Shown: one piece after another, positions 4,964-62,357 of the stretch
Layout of the letters: the number at the start of each line of letters is the position of its first letter
Position numbering within the stretch: the stretch's first letter is position 1
Origin: Candidatus Omnitrophota bacterium
GTDB lineage: Bacteria; Omnitrophota; Gorgyraeia; Gygaellales; Profunditerraquicolaceae
Direction of reading: 5' to 3'
Length of the DNA: 64,000 nt
Assembly (NCBI GenBank): GCA_003598025.1
Contig: QZKH01000003.1
Span: 42,048 to 106,047, forward strand
Notes under the pieces: generated by a model
The model's database searches: none
Seen by the model: only the letters and a program-made list of their open reading frames with translations
Told to the model about the DNA's origin: nothing
Position numbers and translations under genes: made by a program

Positions 4964-5789
4964 TGCTCATAAAGGAGATTTCGGACATATATTCATTTTG
5001 GCCGGTTCGTTGCGATTTTCCGGAGCAGCAGTTCTATGCGCAGAGGCAGCGATGCGCTGCGGGGCAGGGCTGGTAACCCTGGGGGTGCCAGAAAATGTAG
5101 CCCGTCCGATAATAAAGTTTAAGCCCAGGGAAATAATGCTCCTTCCTTTGCATGAGACAAAAGAAGGCACGTTAAGTCCGTCTGGATATAAAAAGATAAA
5201 AAATTTCGCAATTACCGCTGATATATTGGCTTTAGGGCCTGGTCTTTCTCAAAATAAATCAACCCAAACTTTAATCCGTAAGATTGTGGCCACGGTAAAT
5301 AAACCTATGGTTATCGATGCTGACGGTCTAAATGCCTTAATAGGCAACTTAGGGATTTTATCCGCTAAACCATATACGCTAAACCCTAAAATATTGACCC
5401 CTCATCCTGGAGAAATGGCAAAGCTTTTGGGCACAAGCATTAAAAAGATTCAGAAACAAAGAAAAGATGCAGCAGTAAACTTTGCTAAGAAATACAAAGT
5501 AACCGTAGTCTTAAAAGGACATAATACGATAGTCGCTGATTATAAAAATAATTTATATGTAAATAAGACCGGTAACCCCGGTATGGCTACTGCTGGAAGC
5601 GGGGATGTTTTGACTGGTATCGTGTCAGCTTTCTTAGCGCAAGGTTTGGATAGTTTTAGCGCAGCTAAATTTGGGGTGTATATTCACGGATTAGCAGGTG
5701 ATCTGGCAGCAAAAGAGAAAACGGAAATTAGCTTGATTGCTTCGGATTTAATTGGTAAAATTCCCGATGCAATAAAGATCAGTTCTTAG
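4926..5789 (+). CDS. nnrD: ADP-dependent NAD(P)H-hydrate dehydratase (YjeF C-terminal domain only)
   Basis: GHIFILAGSLRFSGAAVLCAEAAMRCGAGLVTLGVP and GNPGMATAGSGDVLTG carbohydrate-kinase-like motifs. No epimerase domain. Confidence 0.8.
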   Translation: MRLPARLLQRRPDAHKGDFGHIFILAGSLRFSGAAVLCAEAAMRCGAGLVTLGVPENVARPIIKFKPREIMLLPLHETKEGTLSPSGYKKIKNFAITADILALGPGLSQNKSTQTLIRKIVATVNKPMVIDADGLNALIGNLGILSAKPYTLNPKILTPHPGEMAKLLGTSIKKIQKQRKDAAVNFAKKYKVTVVLKGHNTIVADYKNNLYVNKTGNPGMATAGSGDVLTGIVSAFLAQGLDSFSAAKFGVYIHGLAGDLAAKEKTEISLIASDLIGKIPDAIKISS

Positions 5790-5827
5790 ATATATTCTGA
5801 AAAAGTTTATCTTAGTACTAATGTATT

Positions 5828-5900
5828 GCCGGCGTAGCTCAGTCGGTAGAGCAGCTGTTTTGTAAACAGCGGGTCGGGGGTTCGATTCCTCTCGCCGGCT
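5828..5900 (+). tRNA. tRNA-Thr (anticodon UGU)
   Basis: Cloverleaf folded by hand. Acceptor GCCGGCG/CGCCGGC, anticodon stem GCTGT/ACAGC, loop TTTGTAA, T-loop TTCGATT. 73 nt. Confidence 0.85.
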
Positions 5901-6027
5901 TAAATGAGGCCACAACTTATGGAGCAAATGAAATGAGCGAACATAAGTTGTTTGGCCGAATTTATCCCGAGTGTACGAAGCAGATTTATTGAAATCTGCG
6001 AGTGCTTACACGAGGGATGTAAAATGA

Positions 6028-6110
6028 TAGTTCATAGTTGATAGTTCATTGTTCATGGATATTGGTATATTTCTATGAACCTTGAACCATGAACTAATAT
6101 GATATGAACA
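6028..6110. repeat. Family-A palindromic repeat element. Left arm of GTTCATAG-type units, right arm of CTATGAAC/CATGAAC units.
   Basis: tagttcatagttgatagttcattgttcatgg ... ctatgaaccttgaaccatgaactaatatgatatgaac. Same architecture as the copies at 36109, 51739, 53418, 57776, 57938 and 59371. Confidence 0.75.
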
Positions 6111-6231
6111 CCCGAACCGAAAGGGGTGTGGGGAATTTCCCCACGTTGTCGGGGTGACAGCGAACATAGTGAGCGCCATAGGGGCAGAGCCCCTATGGAG
6201 AGCGAGCGGTGATTGAAGACTTGGCGAGCGA

Positions 6232-6262
6232 GGGTCGGGGGTTCGATTCCTCTCGCCGGCTT
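6232..6262 (+). repeat. 31-nt direct repeat of the 3' end of tRNA-Thr (T-arm plus acceptor 3' strand). Partner copy at 5871-5901.
   Basis: GGGTCGGGGGTTCGATTCCTCTCGCCGGCTT is identical at both sites. 330 bp of non-coding, hairpin-rich DNA lies between them. No upstream 5' acceptor strand, so this is not a second tRNA. Confidence 0.8.
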
Positions 6263-6263
6263 T

Positions 6264-6334
6264 ACAAAGTCACCAAGTCACAAGGACACACGTCACAAGT
6301 TTATGTGACGTTGTGACTTTGTGTCATTGTGACA
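6264..6334. repeat. Family-B palindromic repeat element. Left arm of GTCACAAG/GACACA units, right arm of TGTGAC/CTTTGTG units.
   Basis: caaagtcaccaagtcacaaggacacacgtcacaag ttta tgtgacgttgtgactttgtgtcattgtgac. Confidence 0.75.
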
Positions 6335-6359
6335 AACACTATTTTTGTTATATTGTTTC

Positions 6360-6445
6360 GGGCAGGTACCCAAGTGGCCAAAGGGGGCAGACTGTAAATC
6401 TGCTGCACCTGTGCTTCGGGGGTTCGAATCCCTCCCTGCCCACCA
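6360..6445 (+). tRNA. tRNA-Tyr (anticodon GUA). Long variable arm. CCA encoded.
   Basis: Acceptor GGGCAGG/CCTGCCC, anticodon loop CTGTAAA, T-loop TTCGAAT, then ACCA. Confidence 0.85.
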
Positions 6446-6467
6446 GTTTGCCTTATTTTCACTCATT

Positions 6468-6538
6468 GCGGGTGTAGTTCAATGGCAGAACAATAGCCTT
6501 CCAAGCTATATATGTCGGTCCGATTCCGATCACCCGCT
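6468..6538 (+). tRNA. tRNA-Gly (anticodon UCC)
   Basis: Acceptor GCGGGTG/CACCCGC, anticodon stem ATAGC/GCTAT with loop CTTCCAA. 71 nt. Thr-Tyr-Gly order mirrors the thrU-tyrU-glyT cluster known from E. coli. Confidence 0.85.
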
Positions 6539-6620
6539 TTAATTTCAGCTGGGTGGCGGGATAAGCACGCTTGTATGTTGCCCGCTGTTAGAGTTTAAAT
6601 ATTTACAAATGAGGAAATAA

Positions 6621-8117
6621 ATGTTTCCATTCAGCCAAAGAAGAGAAATAAGGGGTATCGATAACCTTTTACCTAAGCTTATCGACCATGCCAATGTTTT
6701 AGTACTTTATTTGGATAATCATGGTTTTATAACCATGACGAATAAGAAAGTCGAAGAGATAACTGGTAAGCGCAGGGAAGATATTATCGGACGCGGCTGG
6801 ATGGATGTGCTGTTTTCAAAAAAGAACCCGACAATTAAAAAACAGATGTTTAAGGCTGTAGTTGATGATTCTATTCTCTATAAACGCTTAAACGGATTTG
6901 AAGGAATAATAGTTGACGCAAATGGCAACGAGCGCCTGATATCCTGGAGTATAAACCCCATACTATCCGAATCTAAGGATCTTGGAGGTGTTTCTTTGTT
7001 GGAAGGAGTTCTGTTTATCGGCAACGATATTACAGAGCTTAGAGAGAAGGGCGCTTCGCTTAAGAAAATCGATGATGCGCTTAAGGATTTGTTTGTCAAC
7101 ATAAAAGAATACGCTTTATATGTTACAAATTTAGACGGTAATATTACGTATTATGGGATAGGCGCCGAAAAGATGTTCGGGTGGCTTAAAAACGAAATCA
7201 TTTTTAAGCACGTTAGTGTTTTGCACCAGCCTGCGACAGCTAAAGAAGTACTTGATAATATTTTCGATAGGGTGAAAAATGCCGGCCAATATGAATCAGA
7301 AATTAATCTGGTAAAAAAGGATAATCAGGAATTTCCGGTTATTCTTACGGTCAGCCAGTTTCTTGATAACGAAGGGAAGTTGATAGGTTTTACCTTTATA
7401 GCTAAAGATATTACAGAAAGAAAGAAGATGGAGTTTCAGATACTTCAGTCTGAAAAACTGGCAGCTATAGGCCAGCTTGCTGCTGGTATGGCTCACGAAA
7501 TCAATAATCCGCTCTTTGTTATTTCCGGACGGCTGGAAATGCTCTTTGATCAGGGTGGATTGGATGAAAAAGTTGCTGAAGATTTGAAGATTATCAACTC
7601 ACAGGCAGACAGGATCAGAAAGCTAGTTGACCGGTTACTGAAGTTTGCTAGGCAAAGCCAATTGAAGCTCGAACCTTTGAATATAAACGATGTTATAGAG
7701 GGAGTTATCCCGTTTTTGTCGTATCAGAAATTGCCTGTTTCTCAGATTAAACTGGTCAAGGAGTTTGATAAAAGCCTGCCAATGGTTAAAGGCGAATTAA
7801 ATCAGCTGCAGGAAGTTTTTATTAACCTTCTCATCAATGGGTATCAGGCTATGTCTGTTAATGGCGGCCAATTGACAGTCAAGACCAGCCTGTACCTTGG
7901 AAGTTTTGTAGAAGTCAGTATTACTGATACCGGCGGAGGCATAAAACCCGAAAACCTTAAAAATATATTTATGCCGTTTTTTTCAACTAAAAAAGACGGT
8001 ACCGGCTTGGGGCTTTCAATCTGCCATAATATTATTCAAAATCACGGCGGGACAATCTCGGTTGAGAATGCACCCGGAAAGGGCACTACTTTTATAGTAA
8101 GGTTGCCAATTATTTAA
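6621..8117 (+). CDS. Cytoplasmic sensor histidine kinase (tandem PAS, HisKA, HATPase_c). No transmembrane segment.
   Basis: H-box LAAIGQLAAGMAHEINNPL. HATPase motifs GGGIKPENL and GTGLGLSICHNI. PAS-like N-terminal regions. Confidence 0.85.
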   Translation: MFPFSQRREIRGIDNLLPKLIDHANVLVLYLDNHGFITMTNKKVEEITGKRREDIIGRGWMDVLFSKKNPTIKKQMFKAVVDDSILYKRLNGFEGIIVDANGNERLISWSINPILSESKDLGGVSLLEGVLFIGNDITELREKGASLKKIDDALKDLFVNIKEYALYVTNLDGNITYYGIGAEKMFGWLKNEIIFKHVSVLHQPATAKEVLDNIFDRVKNAGQYESEINLVKKDNQEFPVILTVSQFLDNEGKLIGFTFIAKDITERKKMEFQILQSEKLAAIGQLAAGMAHEINNPLFVISGRLEMLFDQGGLDEKVAEDLKIINSQADRIRKLVDRLLKFARQSQLKLEPLNINDVIEGVIPFLSYQKLPVSQIKLVKEFDKSLPMVKGELNQLQEVFINLLINGYQAMSVNGGQLTVKTSLYLGSFVEVSITDTGGGIKPENLKNIFMPFFSTKKDGTGLGLSICHNIIQNHGGTISVENAPGKGTTFIVRLPII

Positions 8118-10695: not shown

Positions 10696-10723
10696 GCGCG
10701 GTAATTTACGGGGAGTAGCGCAG

Positions 10724-10875
10724 CTCCGACGCACTCATTTCATTCGCAGTCGGAGTCCCGACCGAGTGTAAACGAGCGTCGGGATTTGGCTTTATCGTCC
10801 GTCATTAATAAAGAAGTTACGGACGATGCCCATTTTGCGCTAACATTTGGCTGAACATATTTGTTAGTTGATATA
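10724..10875 (+). other. 152-bp hairpin-rich segment bounded by a 16-nt direct repeat of the tRNA-Pro 5' end (ACGGGGAGTAGCGCAG at 10708-10723 and 10876-10891). Possible terminators, a small RNA, or a miniature insertion.
   Basis: Three perfect stems: CTCCGAC/GTCGGAG, TCCCGAC/GTCGGGA, ATCGTCCGT/ACGGACGAT. Confidence 0.6.
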
Positions 10876-10876
10876 A

Positions 10877-10953
10877 CGGGGAGTAGCGCAGTTTGGCTAG
10901 CGCGTTTGAATGGGGTTCAAAAGGTCGTGGGTTCAAGTCCCACCTCCCCGACC
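10877..10953 (+). tRNA. tRNA-Pro (anticodon GGG). CCA encoded.
   Basis: Acceptor CGGGGAG/CTCCCCG, anticodon stem TTTGA/TCAAA with loop ATGGGGT, T-arm GTGGGTTCAAGTCCCAC, then ACCA. Confidence 0.85.
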
Positions 10954-11076
10954 AAAGTTCTCTTGTGATGTTTGAGATGTGAGCTTTGGCCATGAGTAGC
11001 CATATTTGTTGACGATTAGTACAAGAGATTTGAGAAAAAATTTTAATTCGAAATATTATCACGAAAGGAGAAATCT

Positions 11077-32494: not shown

Positions 32495-32632
32495 AGATTC
32501 ATAGTTGATTATTCATAGCTGAAGTCACAAAGACACCAGTCACAAAGACACAAAATTATTGATTTTTATTTTAGTTTTGTACGTTTATTTGTGACCTTGT
32601 GACATTGTGGCGTGTGTCCCATATAAACGTAT
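32495..32632. repeat. Composite repeat locus. Short family-A units followed by a family-B palindrome with an AT-rich centre.
   Basis: attcatagttgattattcatag then gtcacaaagacaccagtcacaaagacacaa ... gtgaccttgtgacattgtggcgtgtgtcc. Confidence 0.7.
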
Positions 32633-36086: not shown

Positions 36087-36108
36087 ACATTAATGGCATA
36101 AGTAGATT

Positions 36109-36388
36109 AGTTCATGGTTCATAGTTCACGGTTCACAGAATAGCGTTTACCAGTTGAATAGTTGGTTCGTTGAACCGAAGAAGCCTGGATTAACGAATAA
36201 ACTATTAAACGAATCAACGATTTAACTATGCTTTTCTTGTGATTTTGCGACCTTAGGCCTTCGACACTGCTCAGGCCGAGGGAGTCCTGAGCGTTTTATG
36301 GTGAGTGAAGTCGAACCAAGCCGAAGGATGTCTTTGTGACTAGATACTCTTCATGTCTATGAACTATGCTCTATGAACTGTGAACCAG
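36109..36388. repeat. Large palindromic family-A element. GTTCA-unit arm at 36109-36138 and TGAAC-unit arm at 36356-36388, enclosing about 215 bp of structured sequence.
   Basis: agttcatggttcatagttcacggttcacag ... ctatgaactatgctctatgaactgtgaaccag. The interior contains a family-B unit gtctttgtgac. Confidence 0.65.
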
Positions 36389-51738: not shown

Positions 51739-51848
51739 GTTCACTGTATTGGTTCATAGTTCATTGTTCATAGTTCATAGAGCTGTCCTTACGTCCATGA
51801 ACTCTGAACTAATCTATGAACTTTGAACCATCAACCATGAACTAATAA
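51739..51848. repeat. Family-A palindromic element filling the whole nfnB-panB spacer
   Basis: GTTCATAGTTCATTGTTCATAGTTCATAGAGCTGTCCTTACGTCCATGAAC. This ~50-nt core is identical to 59374-59423. Confidence 0.8.
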
Positions 51849-51861
51849 TGAGGCAATAGTT

Positions 51862-53419: not shown

Positions 53420-53546
53420 TTCATACATTAGTTCATTGTTCATAGTTAATAGTTTATAGAAATATGCCATCTATCCATGAACTTTGAACTATGATCTATG
53501 AACCAATAAATCCATGAACTTTGAACCTTCAACCGTGAACTAATAT
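53418..53546. repeat. Family-A palindromic element, divergent copy
   Basis: gttcatacattagttcattgttcatagttaatag ... ccatgaactttgaactatgatctatgaacc ... catgaactttgaaccttcaaccgtgaactaat. Confidence 0.75.
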
Positions 53547-53588
53547 CTCCTTGACTTTTAACTTAAATTGAGATAAAAATAAAAAGCT

Positions 53589-54896: not shown

Positions 54897-54906
54897 TTAT
54901 TAGATG

Positions 54907-54972
54907 GGTCACAAGGACACAAGACACAAGGACACAAAAAACTGTGACTTTGTGACGTGTGACTTTGTGACT
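54907..54972. repeat. Family-B palindromic element
   Basis: gtcacaaggacacaagacacaaggacacaa aaaac tgtgactttgtgacgtgtgactttgtgac. Confidence 0.8.
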
Positions 54973-55016
54973 GCTGATGATTTTGAGCTAAACAAAAAGG
55001 GAGGGTTTTAAAAGCA

Positions 55017-57773: not shown

Positions 57774-57775
57774 CC

Positions 57776-57850
57776 TAGTTCATTGTTCGTAGTTCATAGG
57801 GTCGTCCTTAGTCCATGAACCATGAACTAATCTATGGATTATGAACCGAT
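57776..57850. repeat. Family-A palindromic element, upstream flank of tRNA-Arg
   Basis: tagttcattgttcgtagttcatag ggtcgtccttagtc catgaaccatgaactaatctatggattatgaac. Confidence 0.75.
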
Positions 57851-57857
57851 TGATTGC

Positions 57858-57931
57858 GCCCCTGTAGCTCATAAGGATAGAGCAACGGTTTCCTAAACCG
57901 TGTGCGGCAGGTTCGATTCCTGCCAGGGGCA
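57858..57931 (+). tRNA. tRNA-Arg (anticodon CCU)
   Basis: Acceptor GCCCCTG/CAGGGGC, anticodon stem ACGGT/ACCGT with loop TTCCTAA, T-arm GCAGGTTCGATTCCTGC. 74 nt. Confidence 0.8.
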
Positions 57932-57937
57932 GTTTAC

Positions 57938-58030
57938 TTAGTTCATAGAGCTGTCCATACGTCCATGAACTATCAACCATGAACCTTGAACTAATCTATA
58001 AACCTTGAACCATCAACCATGAACTAATCT
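57938..58030. repeat. Family-A palindromic element, downstream flank of tRNA-Arg. Ends at the sigma-factor ATG.
   Basis: ttagttcatagagctgtccatacgtccatgaactatcaaccatgaaccttgaactaatctataaaccttgaaccatcaaccatgaactaatct then ATG. Confidence 0.75.
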
Positions 58031-59370: not shown

Positions 59371-59483
59371 GTGTTCATAGTTCATTGTTCATAGTTCATA
59401 GAGCTGTCCTTACGTCCATGAACCTTGAACCATCAATTATGAACTAATCTATGAACCTTGAACTACCAACCATGAACTAATCC
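59371..59483. repeat. Family-A palindromic element. Its last unit supplies the ATG of the next gene.
   Basis: gtgttcatagttcattgttcatagttcatagagctgtccttacgtccatgaaccttgaacc...catgaactaatccATG. Confidence 0.8.
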
Positions 59484-62284: not shown

Positions 62285-62317
62285 CCCTCGGGAGAGCATA
62301 TCTCCCGGGGGTTTTTT
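62285..62317 (+). terminator. Rho-independent terminator after the outer-membrane protein gene
   Basis: CCCTCGGGAGAGCATATCTCCCGGGGG then TTTTTT. Confidence 0.85.
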
Positions 62318-62324
62318 ATTACCA

Positions 62325-62355
62325 CGTCACAAAGTCACACGTCACAAAGTCACAA
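62325..62355. repeat. Family-B left arm, immediately upstream of the four-helix-bundle gene
   Basis: cgtcacaaagtcacacgtcacaaagtcacaa. Confidence 0.8.
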
Positions 62356-62357
62356 TT

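Follow-up and report, generated by a model that had tools for sequence, protein, structure and literature searches.

Duplicated tail of the tRNA-Thr gene

The subject of this analysis is a small structured module downstream of the tRNA-Thr gene of a Candidatus Omnitrophota bacterium. It lies in a 64,000-nucleotide (nt) stretch of contig QZKH01000003.1 (assembly GCA_003598025.1, positions 42,048 to 106,047 of the forward strand). This whole stretch is called the window here, and positions refer to it unless another locus is named. Other loci are designated by L and a number. In the window, a complete tRNA-Thr gene is followed by genes for tRNA-Tyr and tRNA-Gly (Table 1). A 31-nt sequence, GGGTCGGGGGTTCGATTCCTCTCGCCGGCTT, occurs twice, once at the 3' end of tRNA-Thr (copy a) and once between tRNA-Thr and tRNA-Tyr (copy b). 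Copy a spans the variable loop, the T-arm, the 3' acceptor strand and the discriminator of tRNA-Thr, plus one further base. Both occurrences are exact. No further match with three or fewer mismatches was found in the window, and 100 shuffles gave an expectation of 0.

An earlier note on this DNA had described the repeat and had called the 330 nt between the copies a non-coding, hairpin-rich insertion. These observations are confirmed. Open reading frames (ORFs) overlapping the segment between the copies are all 59 amino acids (aa) or shorter and all lie inside hairpin repeats or tRNAs, and there is no convincing gene. The perfect hairpins named in the note are all present, and the family-A element which it placed in the insert is a hairpin that matches other copies in the window. 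The region from 5901 to 6262 (362 nt) folds far more strongly than its shuffles (z = -9.2). Neither ARAGORN nor the Rfam tRNA model called a cloverleaf at 6100-6262.

The note also treated the 330 nt as one cargo, and this does not hold. The DNA between the copies is a mosaic of three parts: a trailer element, called F here, directly behind tRNA-Thr; the family-A hairpin; and the module, which occupies the last ~155 nt and whose 3' end is copy b.

Architecture of the module

The core of the module family consists, in this order, of helix Pa, the joining strand J (GGGGUNACAG), hairpin Pb, helix P4 (CCAKAGGGGC...GCCCCUNUGG) and the variable region Pc; the GAGCGAC junction and the tail copy follow. 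The junction motif GAGCGA(C) is conserved across the family. The internal position of P4 is non-Watson-Crick in 32 of 37 aligned members. In relatives, Pb carries GNRA loops and, at its base, a candidate tandem G·A motif, both read by eye. The unit of the window folds with z = -4.3. Its 5' segment and copy b can form a duplex of -17.5 kcal/mol, as predicted with RNAduplex. In two other Omnitrophota loci, L043 and L052, the sequence just 5' of the second Thr tail is homologous to window 6110-6231.

Table 1. Features at the tRNA-Thr locus of the window.
Feature	Position	Strand	Remarks
tRNA-Thr(TGT), complete, host tRNA	5828-5900	+	ARAGORN; Rfam tRNA, 68.4 bits
Copy a of the 31-nt repeat	5871-5901	+	Exact match; chance expectation 0
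Trailer element F	5901-6016	+	TAAATGA, hairpin 1 (5908-5957), GAATTTAT, hairpin 2 (5966-6016)
Family-A hairpin repeat, GTTCAT... / ...ATGAAC	~6025-6098	+	Inverted repeat I2 (6028-6049 / 6075-6096); copies elsewhere in the window
Module, whole	6110-6262		
5' segment of the module, ACCCGAACC	6110-6118	+	Complement of GGGTCGGG(G), with which copy b starts; candidate 5' strand of the closing helix P1
Helix Pa, AAAGGGGUG - GUGGGG / CCCCAC - GUUGUC	6119-6150	+	12 pairs, 6 compensatory
Joining strand J, GGGGUGACAG	6151-6160	+	Conserved; variable base covaries with the P4 mismatch; strand invariant by construction of the search pattern
Hairpin Pb, variable	6161-6175	+	Alignments A2 and A3, read by eye, no statistics
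Helix P4, CCAUAGGGGC AGA GCCCCUAUGG	6176-6198	+	Invariant by ascertainment
Variable region Pc, between GAGAGCGAGCG and GGCGAGCGA	6199-6231	+	Last bases GAGCGA(C), next to the tail derived from the tRNA
Copy b of the 31-nt repeat	6232-6262	+	Exact match; 3' tail of the module, derived from tRNA-Thr
Family-B hairpin repeat, GTCACAAG... / ...TGTGAC	6264-6333	+	Inverted repeat I1; between the module and tRNA-Tyr; other copies in the window
tRNA-Tyr(GTA)	6360-6445	+	ARAGORN; Rfam tRNA; next in the Thr-Tyr-Gly cluster
tRNA-Gly	6468-6538		After tRNA-Tyr

Distribution of the family and its linkage to tRNA genes

A search of metagenome contigs with the core pattern (GGGGTNACAG, 8-38 nt, GCCAKAGGGGCNNNGCCCCT), of which the J and P4 motifs are part, yielded at least 121 instances in at least 120 contigs with GC contents of 37-73%. 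The breadth of the family is gauged by this GC range and not by the taxonomy of the contigs. All family counts below are drawn from the matches listed for this pattern. In viral contigs, the full pattern had no match, and a looser pattern had one, in L082.

Because alignment of the closing helix and the variable hairpins is poor, a covariance model of the module core (R1) amounts in essence to a sequence profile. On the window and 82 other loci (657 kb), R1 matched only window 6110-6200 (88 bits), L043, L052, L046 and the viral L082. The module is thus single-copy in the window, and it is rare, with four carriers among ~65 related loci.

The module is linked to tRNA genes. A tRNA on the same strand lies within 130 nt upstream in 54 of the 97 instances with enough upstream sequence to be judged, and a tRNA on the opposite strand is adjacent in only one instance. 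The upstream tRNAs belong to 19 anticodon types, among them those for Thr, Arg, Lys, Met, Ser, Ala, Gln, Gly, Trp and Phe. The distance from the end of the tRNA to the module varies from 3 to 60 nt. In L046, L083, L114, L147, L166 and L188, the GAGCGAC junction directly adjoins position 1 of a complete tRNA. The only protein families that recur near the 121 listed instances are those of syntenic housekeeping genes.

A subtype of the module with high GC content has no adjoining tRNA (L104, L140, L145, L169, L181, L195 and L202). On each side it has a perfect hairpin of ~44 nt, the two being nearly identical (GTACAGCATTTCAGAAGTCC nnnn GGACTTCTGAAATGCTGTAC), and CTTAG-like bases adjoin the outer side of both.

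Tail copy and antisense segment

An exact copy of the tail of its own tRNA, 10-36 nt long, ends 47 of the 55 tRNA-linked instances. The copies begin in the T-loop, the T-stem or the variable loop. The end of the repeat lies within -3 to +4 nt of the tRNA 3' end in 41 of the 47, and the other six run on into a partial second unit or off the contig. Partial second units after the copy are present in L119, L126, L142 and L163, and repeats extending past the tail in L103 and L128. CCA is present in the copy only where the tRNA gene encodes it, indicating that the copy was made at the DNA level. Retro-insertion of a complementary DNA (cDNA) of a mature tRNA was rejected on this ground.

Just 5' of the core lies a stretch that is antisense to the T-arm region of the cognate tRNA. 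Within 80 nt downstream, 49% of module-bearing trailers contain an exact antisense match to the tail of 8 nt or more, versus 3% of module-less trailers and 1% of upstream controls. An antisense T-arm as a general feature of tRNA trailers was rejected on the first two figures. The closing-helix duplexes between cognate strands have a mean of -17.7 kcal/mol, versus -12.6 kcal/mol for non-cognate strands (p = 3e-9). In L165, where the copy has drifted from the tRNA, the 5' antisense strand follows the copy and not the tRNA. A recurrent difference of the copy is a U in place of C56 in the T-loop. This change would break a tRNA, but it keeps a wobble pair with the antisense strand.

These data bear on a neutral explanation, in which copy b is what erosion left after the tRNA gene was duplicated in tandem or replication slipped, the hairpins between the copies are ordinary intergenic repeats, and nothing in the segment is functional. 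Partial tRNA duplicates are indeed common near the cluster in Omnitrophota (5' halves of tRNA-Gly; 3' parts of tRNA-Pro, tRNA-Tyr and tRNA-Gly), and the genome is full of hairpin repeats, which make up ~200 nt of the insert. However, the sequence and the structure of the module are conserved over contigs spanning the whole GC range, compensatory evolution keeps the closing helix even where the copy diverges, as in L165, and the antisense segment almost exclusively accompanies the module. A neutral remnant is therefore highly unlikely.

A 20-nt palindrome, CCTGCCTGCCGGCAGGCAGG, lies in the T-loop of the second Thr copy of L043 (5094-5113). The Carb_kinase of L201 is 99% identical to that of L043, and L201 lacks the palindrome, which is therefore a recent polymorphic insertion. 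The same palindrome or near variants are also observed inside or near modules in other contigs (L046, L095 and L098).

Evidence for an RNA-level structure

Half of the 12 pairs of Pa show compensatory changes, and their covariation exceeds that of all 500 shuffles and all slid controls. The four outer pairs of Pa are mostly G·U alternating with G-C. A three-way covariation connects the variable base N of GGGGUNACAG (N1) with both sides of the internal mismatch of P4 (K and N3). The combinations of N1, K and N3 are G,G,A (41), A,U,U (31), G,U,A (7) and U,U,G (6), and the chi-square test of N1 against N3 gives p = 2e-27. This suggests a tertiary contact. The plus strand folds better than the minus strand in 91 of 92 non-redundant cores, with G·U making up 9.4% of the predicted pairs. 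From MAFFT alignments, RNAalifold retrieved no helices other than Pa and P4. Together, the G·U-rich helices, the compensatory changes, the three-way covariation and the strand asymmetry speak for an RNA of the same sense as the tRNA.

Such an RNA could be a self-cleaving ribozyme that trims the 3' trailer of the tRNA, like the theta ribozymes related to the hepatitis delta virus (HDV) ribozyme, for which this role has been proposed (PMC10879173). The position directly 3' of tRNAs and a complex conserved fold with evidence of tertiary contacts would agree with this, and the theta ribozymes are a precedent. On the other hand, no Rfam ribozyme matched the window (E ≤ 10) or 15 other loci (E ≤ 5), and the sequence could not be threaded onto the HDV-like nested pseudoknot. 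The variable distance between tRNA and module does not favor trimming by self-cleavage, which would not need a tail copy either. The chance of a ribozyme of this kind is considered slight.

Empty sites and mobility

The closest relatives of the window are Candidatus Omnitrophota genomes. The gene order Carb_kinase-Thr-Tyr-Gly is syntenic in dozens of them, and the earlier note was right in regarding the cluster as conserved and interrupted. Among 26 relatives with a called tRNA-Tyr, the Thr-Tyr spacer ranges from 1 to 364 nt, and it is 25 nt or shorter in 12, so that the empty site for which the note had proposed to look is present. Relative to these spacers of 1-25 nt, the segment in the window is an insertion. 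Its 459-nt spacer is longer than that of any of the 26.

The nearest relatives of the window have no module at the Thr site. Carriers at this site are scattered over at least five places in the Carb_kinase tree. The clade of L100, L103, L128 and L182 keeps the module throughout, at 77-83% identity of Carb_kinase. In the Lys-Leu-Gly cluster, the module lies after Lys, between Leu and Gly, or after Gly, depending on the contig. This patchy distribution fits an element that was gained and lost repeatedly between lineages. One mechanism that may account for gain, loss and the formation of partial tandem arrays is recombination or slippage involving the tRNA tail and its copy.

The empty sites and the repeat raise the question of an integrase, which was the explanation of the earlier note. 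Integration into a tRNA gene classically leaves a direct repeat as its footprint, which begins in the variable loop or T-arm and runs to the 3' end of the tRNA. In this explanation, the two copies are the attachment sites (attL and attR) of an element integrated by a tyrosine integrase at tRNA-Thr, and the 330 nt are the remnant of a decayed island or a cis-mobilizable element (CIME). The repeat geometry matches the footprint, and relatives do have an empty site. However, precomputed Pfam calls include no Phage_integrase or other recombinase domain and no transposase domain within 10 kb on each side of the element. The genes in this range all have housekeeping functions, including an FtsH-type protease, DHPS-like, DAC, PdxJ, ACPS, Carb_kinase, a PAS histidine kinase and thymidylate synthase. 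One conserved module behind 19 anticodon types is not expected of one integrase family, and att sites do not predict a tRNA-specific antisense segment.

The trailer element F also opposes an att origin. It recurs directly after the 3' ends of tRNAs or tails, and its stems show compensatory changes. It is found after tRNA-Tyr in L025 (6176-6290), after tRNA-Gly and also after copy b in L043 (the two sites being 5130-5250 and 5660-5780), and after copy b in L201. Since F precedes the module inside the repeats in the window but lies outside them, after copy b, in L043 and L201, the inter-repeat DNA is not one element. It is very improbable that the repeat was left by a tyrosine integrase. Two points of the earlier note are kept in part. 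It had proposed a scar or a miniature non-autonomous element; the insert does act like a small non-autonomous unit, but copy b is the 3' end of a conserved module and not a scar. It had also named a functional tRNA-like gene at copy b as evidence against its own explanation, and this comes close to the result: copy b is part of a conserved RNA-like element, but not of a tRNA.

A more serious rival is selfish, non-autonomous mobile DNA, mobilized in trans, that inserts at tRNA 3' ends and duplicates the tail. The hairpins would be recognition structures of the mobilizing enzyme, and the route would be a long and variable target duplication or Campbell-type recombination through the tail. Several observations agree with it: the sites of relatives are empty, carriers are scattered in the Carb_kinase tree, and the position within the Lys-Leu-Gly cluster differs. 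In addition, up to 36 nt of the tails are identical to the neighboring tRNA, four loci have a partial second unit behind the copy, and the antisense/sense T-arm pair around the core resembles terminal inverted repeats.

Other observations disagree with a selfish element. No transposase, integrase or reverse transcriptase is recurrent near the 121 listed instances, and none was found within 10 kb in the window. The module is single-copy in the window and rare among related loci. The fixed terminal inverted repeats and the fixed target duplication of miniature inverted-repeat transposable elements (MITEs) are absent; the flanks, or "terminal repeats", change with the target tRNA, and the repeat measures 10-36 nt or more. 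The G·U-rich helices, the GNRA loops and the three-way covariation are features of RNA. The module is retained across the L100 clade, and viral contigs lack matches to the full pattern. Selfish mobile DNA is considered rather unlikely, and it overlaps partly with a functional RNA, as both may be true at once.

A proposed structured RNA in tRNA operons

With moderate confidence, we regard 6110-6262 as a member of a widespread family of ncRNAs (non-coding RNAs) that have a structured fold, measure ~150-200 nt and lie in tRNA operons, a "rider" RNA comparable to the RtT RNA of Escherichia coli. The position of the module behind tRNA genes, its architecture and its conservation were observed. Transcription would start at the tRNA promoter and cover tRNA-Thr and the module together. 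The closing helix would arise by pairing of the antisense segment with the tail copy, and the tRNA-type 3' end may let the nucleases of tRNA maturation release a discrete RNA, as described for E. coli RtT.

Several points weigh against this interpretation. Co-transcription and excision by tRNA nucleases are inferences from the position of the module and its resemblance to RtT. In the minimum free energy (MFE) fold of the window unit, copy b pairs with 6203-6227 and the far 5' segment pairs locally. In Thr-type members, the closing helix leaves ~20 nt of the tail unpaired, and a mimic of the "top half" of a tRNA is not obvious. About 45% of the judgeable instances do not follow a tRNA and instead adjoin the 5' end of one or sit between two long hairpins, so that the core can do without the tRNA tail. 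J and P4 are invariant because their motifs were part of the search pattern. The argument from strand asymmetry is weakened by the generally better folding of G-rich strands. The RtT model (RF00391, threshold 45 bits) has no match in window 5700-6700 at E ≤ 10. Finally, the patchy distribution suits a selfish mobile element equally well as a useful RNA, and selfish mobile DNA is for this reason a serious and partly overlapping rival.

More tentatively, the rider RNA of the window may belong to a large undescribed class of ornate bacterial ncRNAs, with RtT as a local case of a phenomenon of many phyla. The core would then have a biochemical function of its own, for example binding of a conserved protein, sensing or sequestering of an enzyme of tRNA processing or modification, regulation, or catalysis, and the RNAs would be spread by an undescribed, tail-templated mechanism. 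If this is true, the combination of tRNA, antisense segment, folded core and tail copy is a general way to make or spread ncRNAs. These would be natural RNAs that borrow the promoter and the processing enzymes of tRNAs, and they would offer biochemists a fold of ~150 nt with covariation-supported tertiary contacts to test. There is also a caution for annotation. Duplicated tRNA 3' ends are routinely taken as att sites or island boundaries, and here this would mislead.

Hairpin repeats and other tRNA fragments

The family-A hairpin is a genome-wide intergenic repeat that is unrelated to the tRNA, and the family-B hairpin is also a genome-wide intergenic repeat. The ~200 nt of inter-repeat DNA other than the module are unrelated small hairpin elements. 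Long hairpin repeats of family A (GTTCATAGTTCAT... / ...ATGAACYTTGAAC) and family B (GTCACAAGGACACAAG... / ...TGTGACTTTGTGAC), built from short tandem motifs, fill most intergenic spacers of the window. Examples are at 36100-36370, 51739-51861, 53420-53550, 57774-58030 and 59371-59483, and further sites at 32550-32606, 54897-54980 and 62310-62357. Both flanks of the tRNA-Arg gene in the window carry them as well.

A 5'-side counterpart of the Thr duplication, with a different small element, is present in the same window. Positions 1-15 of tRNA-Pro(GGG), CGGGGAGTAGCGCAG, are duplicated ~170 nt upstream of the tRNA-Pro gene (10877-10954), in a fragment at 10709-10790. The D-loop of the fragment is interrupted by the hairpins CTCCGAC..GTCGGAG and TCCCGAC..GTCGGGA, and TTTGGC follows.

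A two-hairpin element of ~60-75 nt (TCCCGCC..GGCGGGA-TYYCGCC..GGCGGCTCAA) occurs in loops of tRNA pseudo-fragments, those of tRNA-Gly in L010, L015, L016, L023, L045, L053 and L060 and those of tRNA-Pro in L022 and L029. In L015, it lies exactly at the anticodon of a tRNA-Gly 5' half, and two different extra halves stand in a row. In the tRNA-Pro loci, its place is the T-loop of 3' pseudo-copies. It resembles a mini-element that targets loops and persists only where the tRNA copy is non-functional.

The anticodon loop of tRNA-Tyr contains an insert of ~230-330 nt in L002, L007, L010, L014, L015, L016, L020, L030, L036, L060 and L147, and these genes were not called by ARAGORN. Read by eye, the insert looks like a group I intron. 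The tRNA-Tyr of the window has no such insert. L007 and L036 contain an ORF of ~200 aa with a LAGLIDADG-like motif between tRNA-Thr and tRNA-Tyr. Behind the interrupted tRNA-Tyr of L147 (2630-2760), the last bases of the tRNA and its trailer (CCACCAAATTTTCCC) form a hairpin with a downstream antisense stretch (GGGAAAATTTGGTGG), which is followed by GCACTCAAGCGAGCG motifs. This unit is present twice.

Tail duplications without the module are also seen in Omnitrophota: L058 and L061 (tRNA-Tyr), L053 (tRNA-Gly 3' part), and L025 and L029 (tRNA-Pro). L058 and L053 share one layout, that is, a tRNA, an antisense T-arm stretch, a structured sequence and a copy from the T-loop to the 3' end. Motifs such as GACCCGRAG...GGGCGC are common to some module-less loci and E. 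coli RtT. The layout of tRNA, antisense stretch and tail copy seems more general than any single core.

Comparison with known RNAs and elements

Rfam 15 was compared with the window at gathering thresholds, with 5700-6700 at E ≤ 10, with 20 module loci at gathering thresholds, and with 15 more loci at E ≤ 5. Only tRNAs and sub-threshold noise were obtained. No described family was found in the literature, where theta ribozymes and RtT were the only leads. For the widespread module family, neither a model in Rfam 15 nor a published description was found; RtT-like RNAs of tRNA operons are a known, if obscure, kind. The only recurrent weak hit in Rfam was Clostridiales-2 (RF02937), with matches on the AAAGGGGUG-Pa part in the window and four other loci (13-22 bits versus a gathering threshold of 58.6). 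They cover one hairpin and are a lead only; no information was found on the function of this motif.

Other candidates were rejected. A tRNA-like gene, a transfer-messenger RNA (tmRNA) or a two-piece tmRNA at copy b is not supported by ARAGORN, which called no tmRNA; the Rfam tmRNA model gave 7.2 bits, on the T-arm only. The identity of the tail also tracks the neighboring tRNA, and no tag reading frame was seen by eye. A guide RNA (omega-RNA of TnpB or IscB, or homing of a CRISPR-associated transposon), in which a scaffold would precede a 3' guide that matches the tRNA, would be expected next to a nuclease or transposase, and none is recurrent; the length of the unpaired tail also varies, from ~8 to 24 nt. 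IS200/IS605 elements insert without duplication of the flank, which also opposes a guide of this type. The resemblance to a folded attC site of integrons is only a loose one (AAC/GTT). A group I or II intron in the T-loop is opposed by the lack of an intron core and by the upstream tRNA, which is already complete. An assembly artifact is opposed by the recurrence of the architecture in many independent assemblies.

Integrative elements, such as phages, integrative and conjugative elements and CIMEs, resemble the insert in that inserted DNA lies between direct repeats of the 3' part of a tRNA, which itself is left intact, and the sites of relatives are empty. The insert differs from them in having no integrase, a non-coding structured cargo of ~150-330 nt, many unrelated tRNAs as neighbors, a tRNA-specific antisense segment and RNA-type structure.

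Theta ribozymes, which are found next to phage tRNAs with a proposed role in tRNA-end maturation, share with the module that they are small structured RNAs adjoining tRNA genes and presumably co-transcribed with them. Unlike them, the module has no HDV-like fold or Rfam ribozyme match, is much larger, has a tail copy and is cellular. GOLLD and ROOL RNAs are roughly 500-800 nt long. They are ornate ncRNAs of unknown function, often near tRNAs and possibly co-transcribed with them (PMC5737381). The module is far smaller, does not match their Rfam families and has a tRNA tail copy.

The closest system is RtT. It is a decades-old curiosity of one E. coli operon, and its function was never settled. 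Older papers on it include those of Rossi et al. from 1981 and of Bösl and Kersten from 1991. In E. coli tyrT-tyrV-rttR (NC_000913.3), the units are 178 nt long, and each ends in a 19-nt copy of the tRNA-Tyr tail including CCA. The Rfam RtT model matches four E. coli units with 133-137 bits. Its consensus closes by pairing of the 5' GgGaaGGAU with the tail copy, and ccaCCACCA is left free. The annotated rttR starts 8 nt behind tyrV and ends with the CCA of the copy. RtT RNA is described as participating in tyrT transcript processing and perhaps also in the stringent response (bioRxiv 10.1101/2024.07.17.603846).

RtT differs from the module in several respects. The core of the module (Pa, GGGGUNACAG, Pb and P4) is not that of RtT. 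The bulk of RtT sits at the T-loop position of the copy, whereas that of the module separates the antisense strand from the sense strand. The units of RtT are arranged in a non-integral tandem array, while the window has a single unit and other loci have partial second units. RtT, as checked here, is associated with one tRNA (Tyr), and it is mainly known in enterobacteria, versus at least 19 anticodon types and a wide range of GC content in the module family. The RtT model has no match on the other Omnitrophota loci with tail duplications either.

The layout is shared. Both RNAs lie downstream of a tRNA in a tRNA operon on the same strand, and both units end in an exact copy of the 3' end of the upstream tRNA (19 nt in E. 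coli; 31 of 31 nt in the window). Both have an AGCGAC-type motif before the tail. In the RtT consensus, a 5' antisense stretch pairs with the tail copy, and across the module family the cognate strands are predicted to do so; in the window, this duplex is possible, but the MFE fold pairs the copy with 6203-6227 instead. Because the layout is the same but the RtT model does not match, RtT and the module are the same kind of thing, but not the same family.

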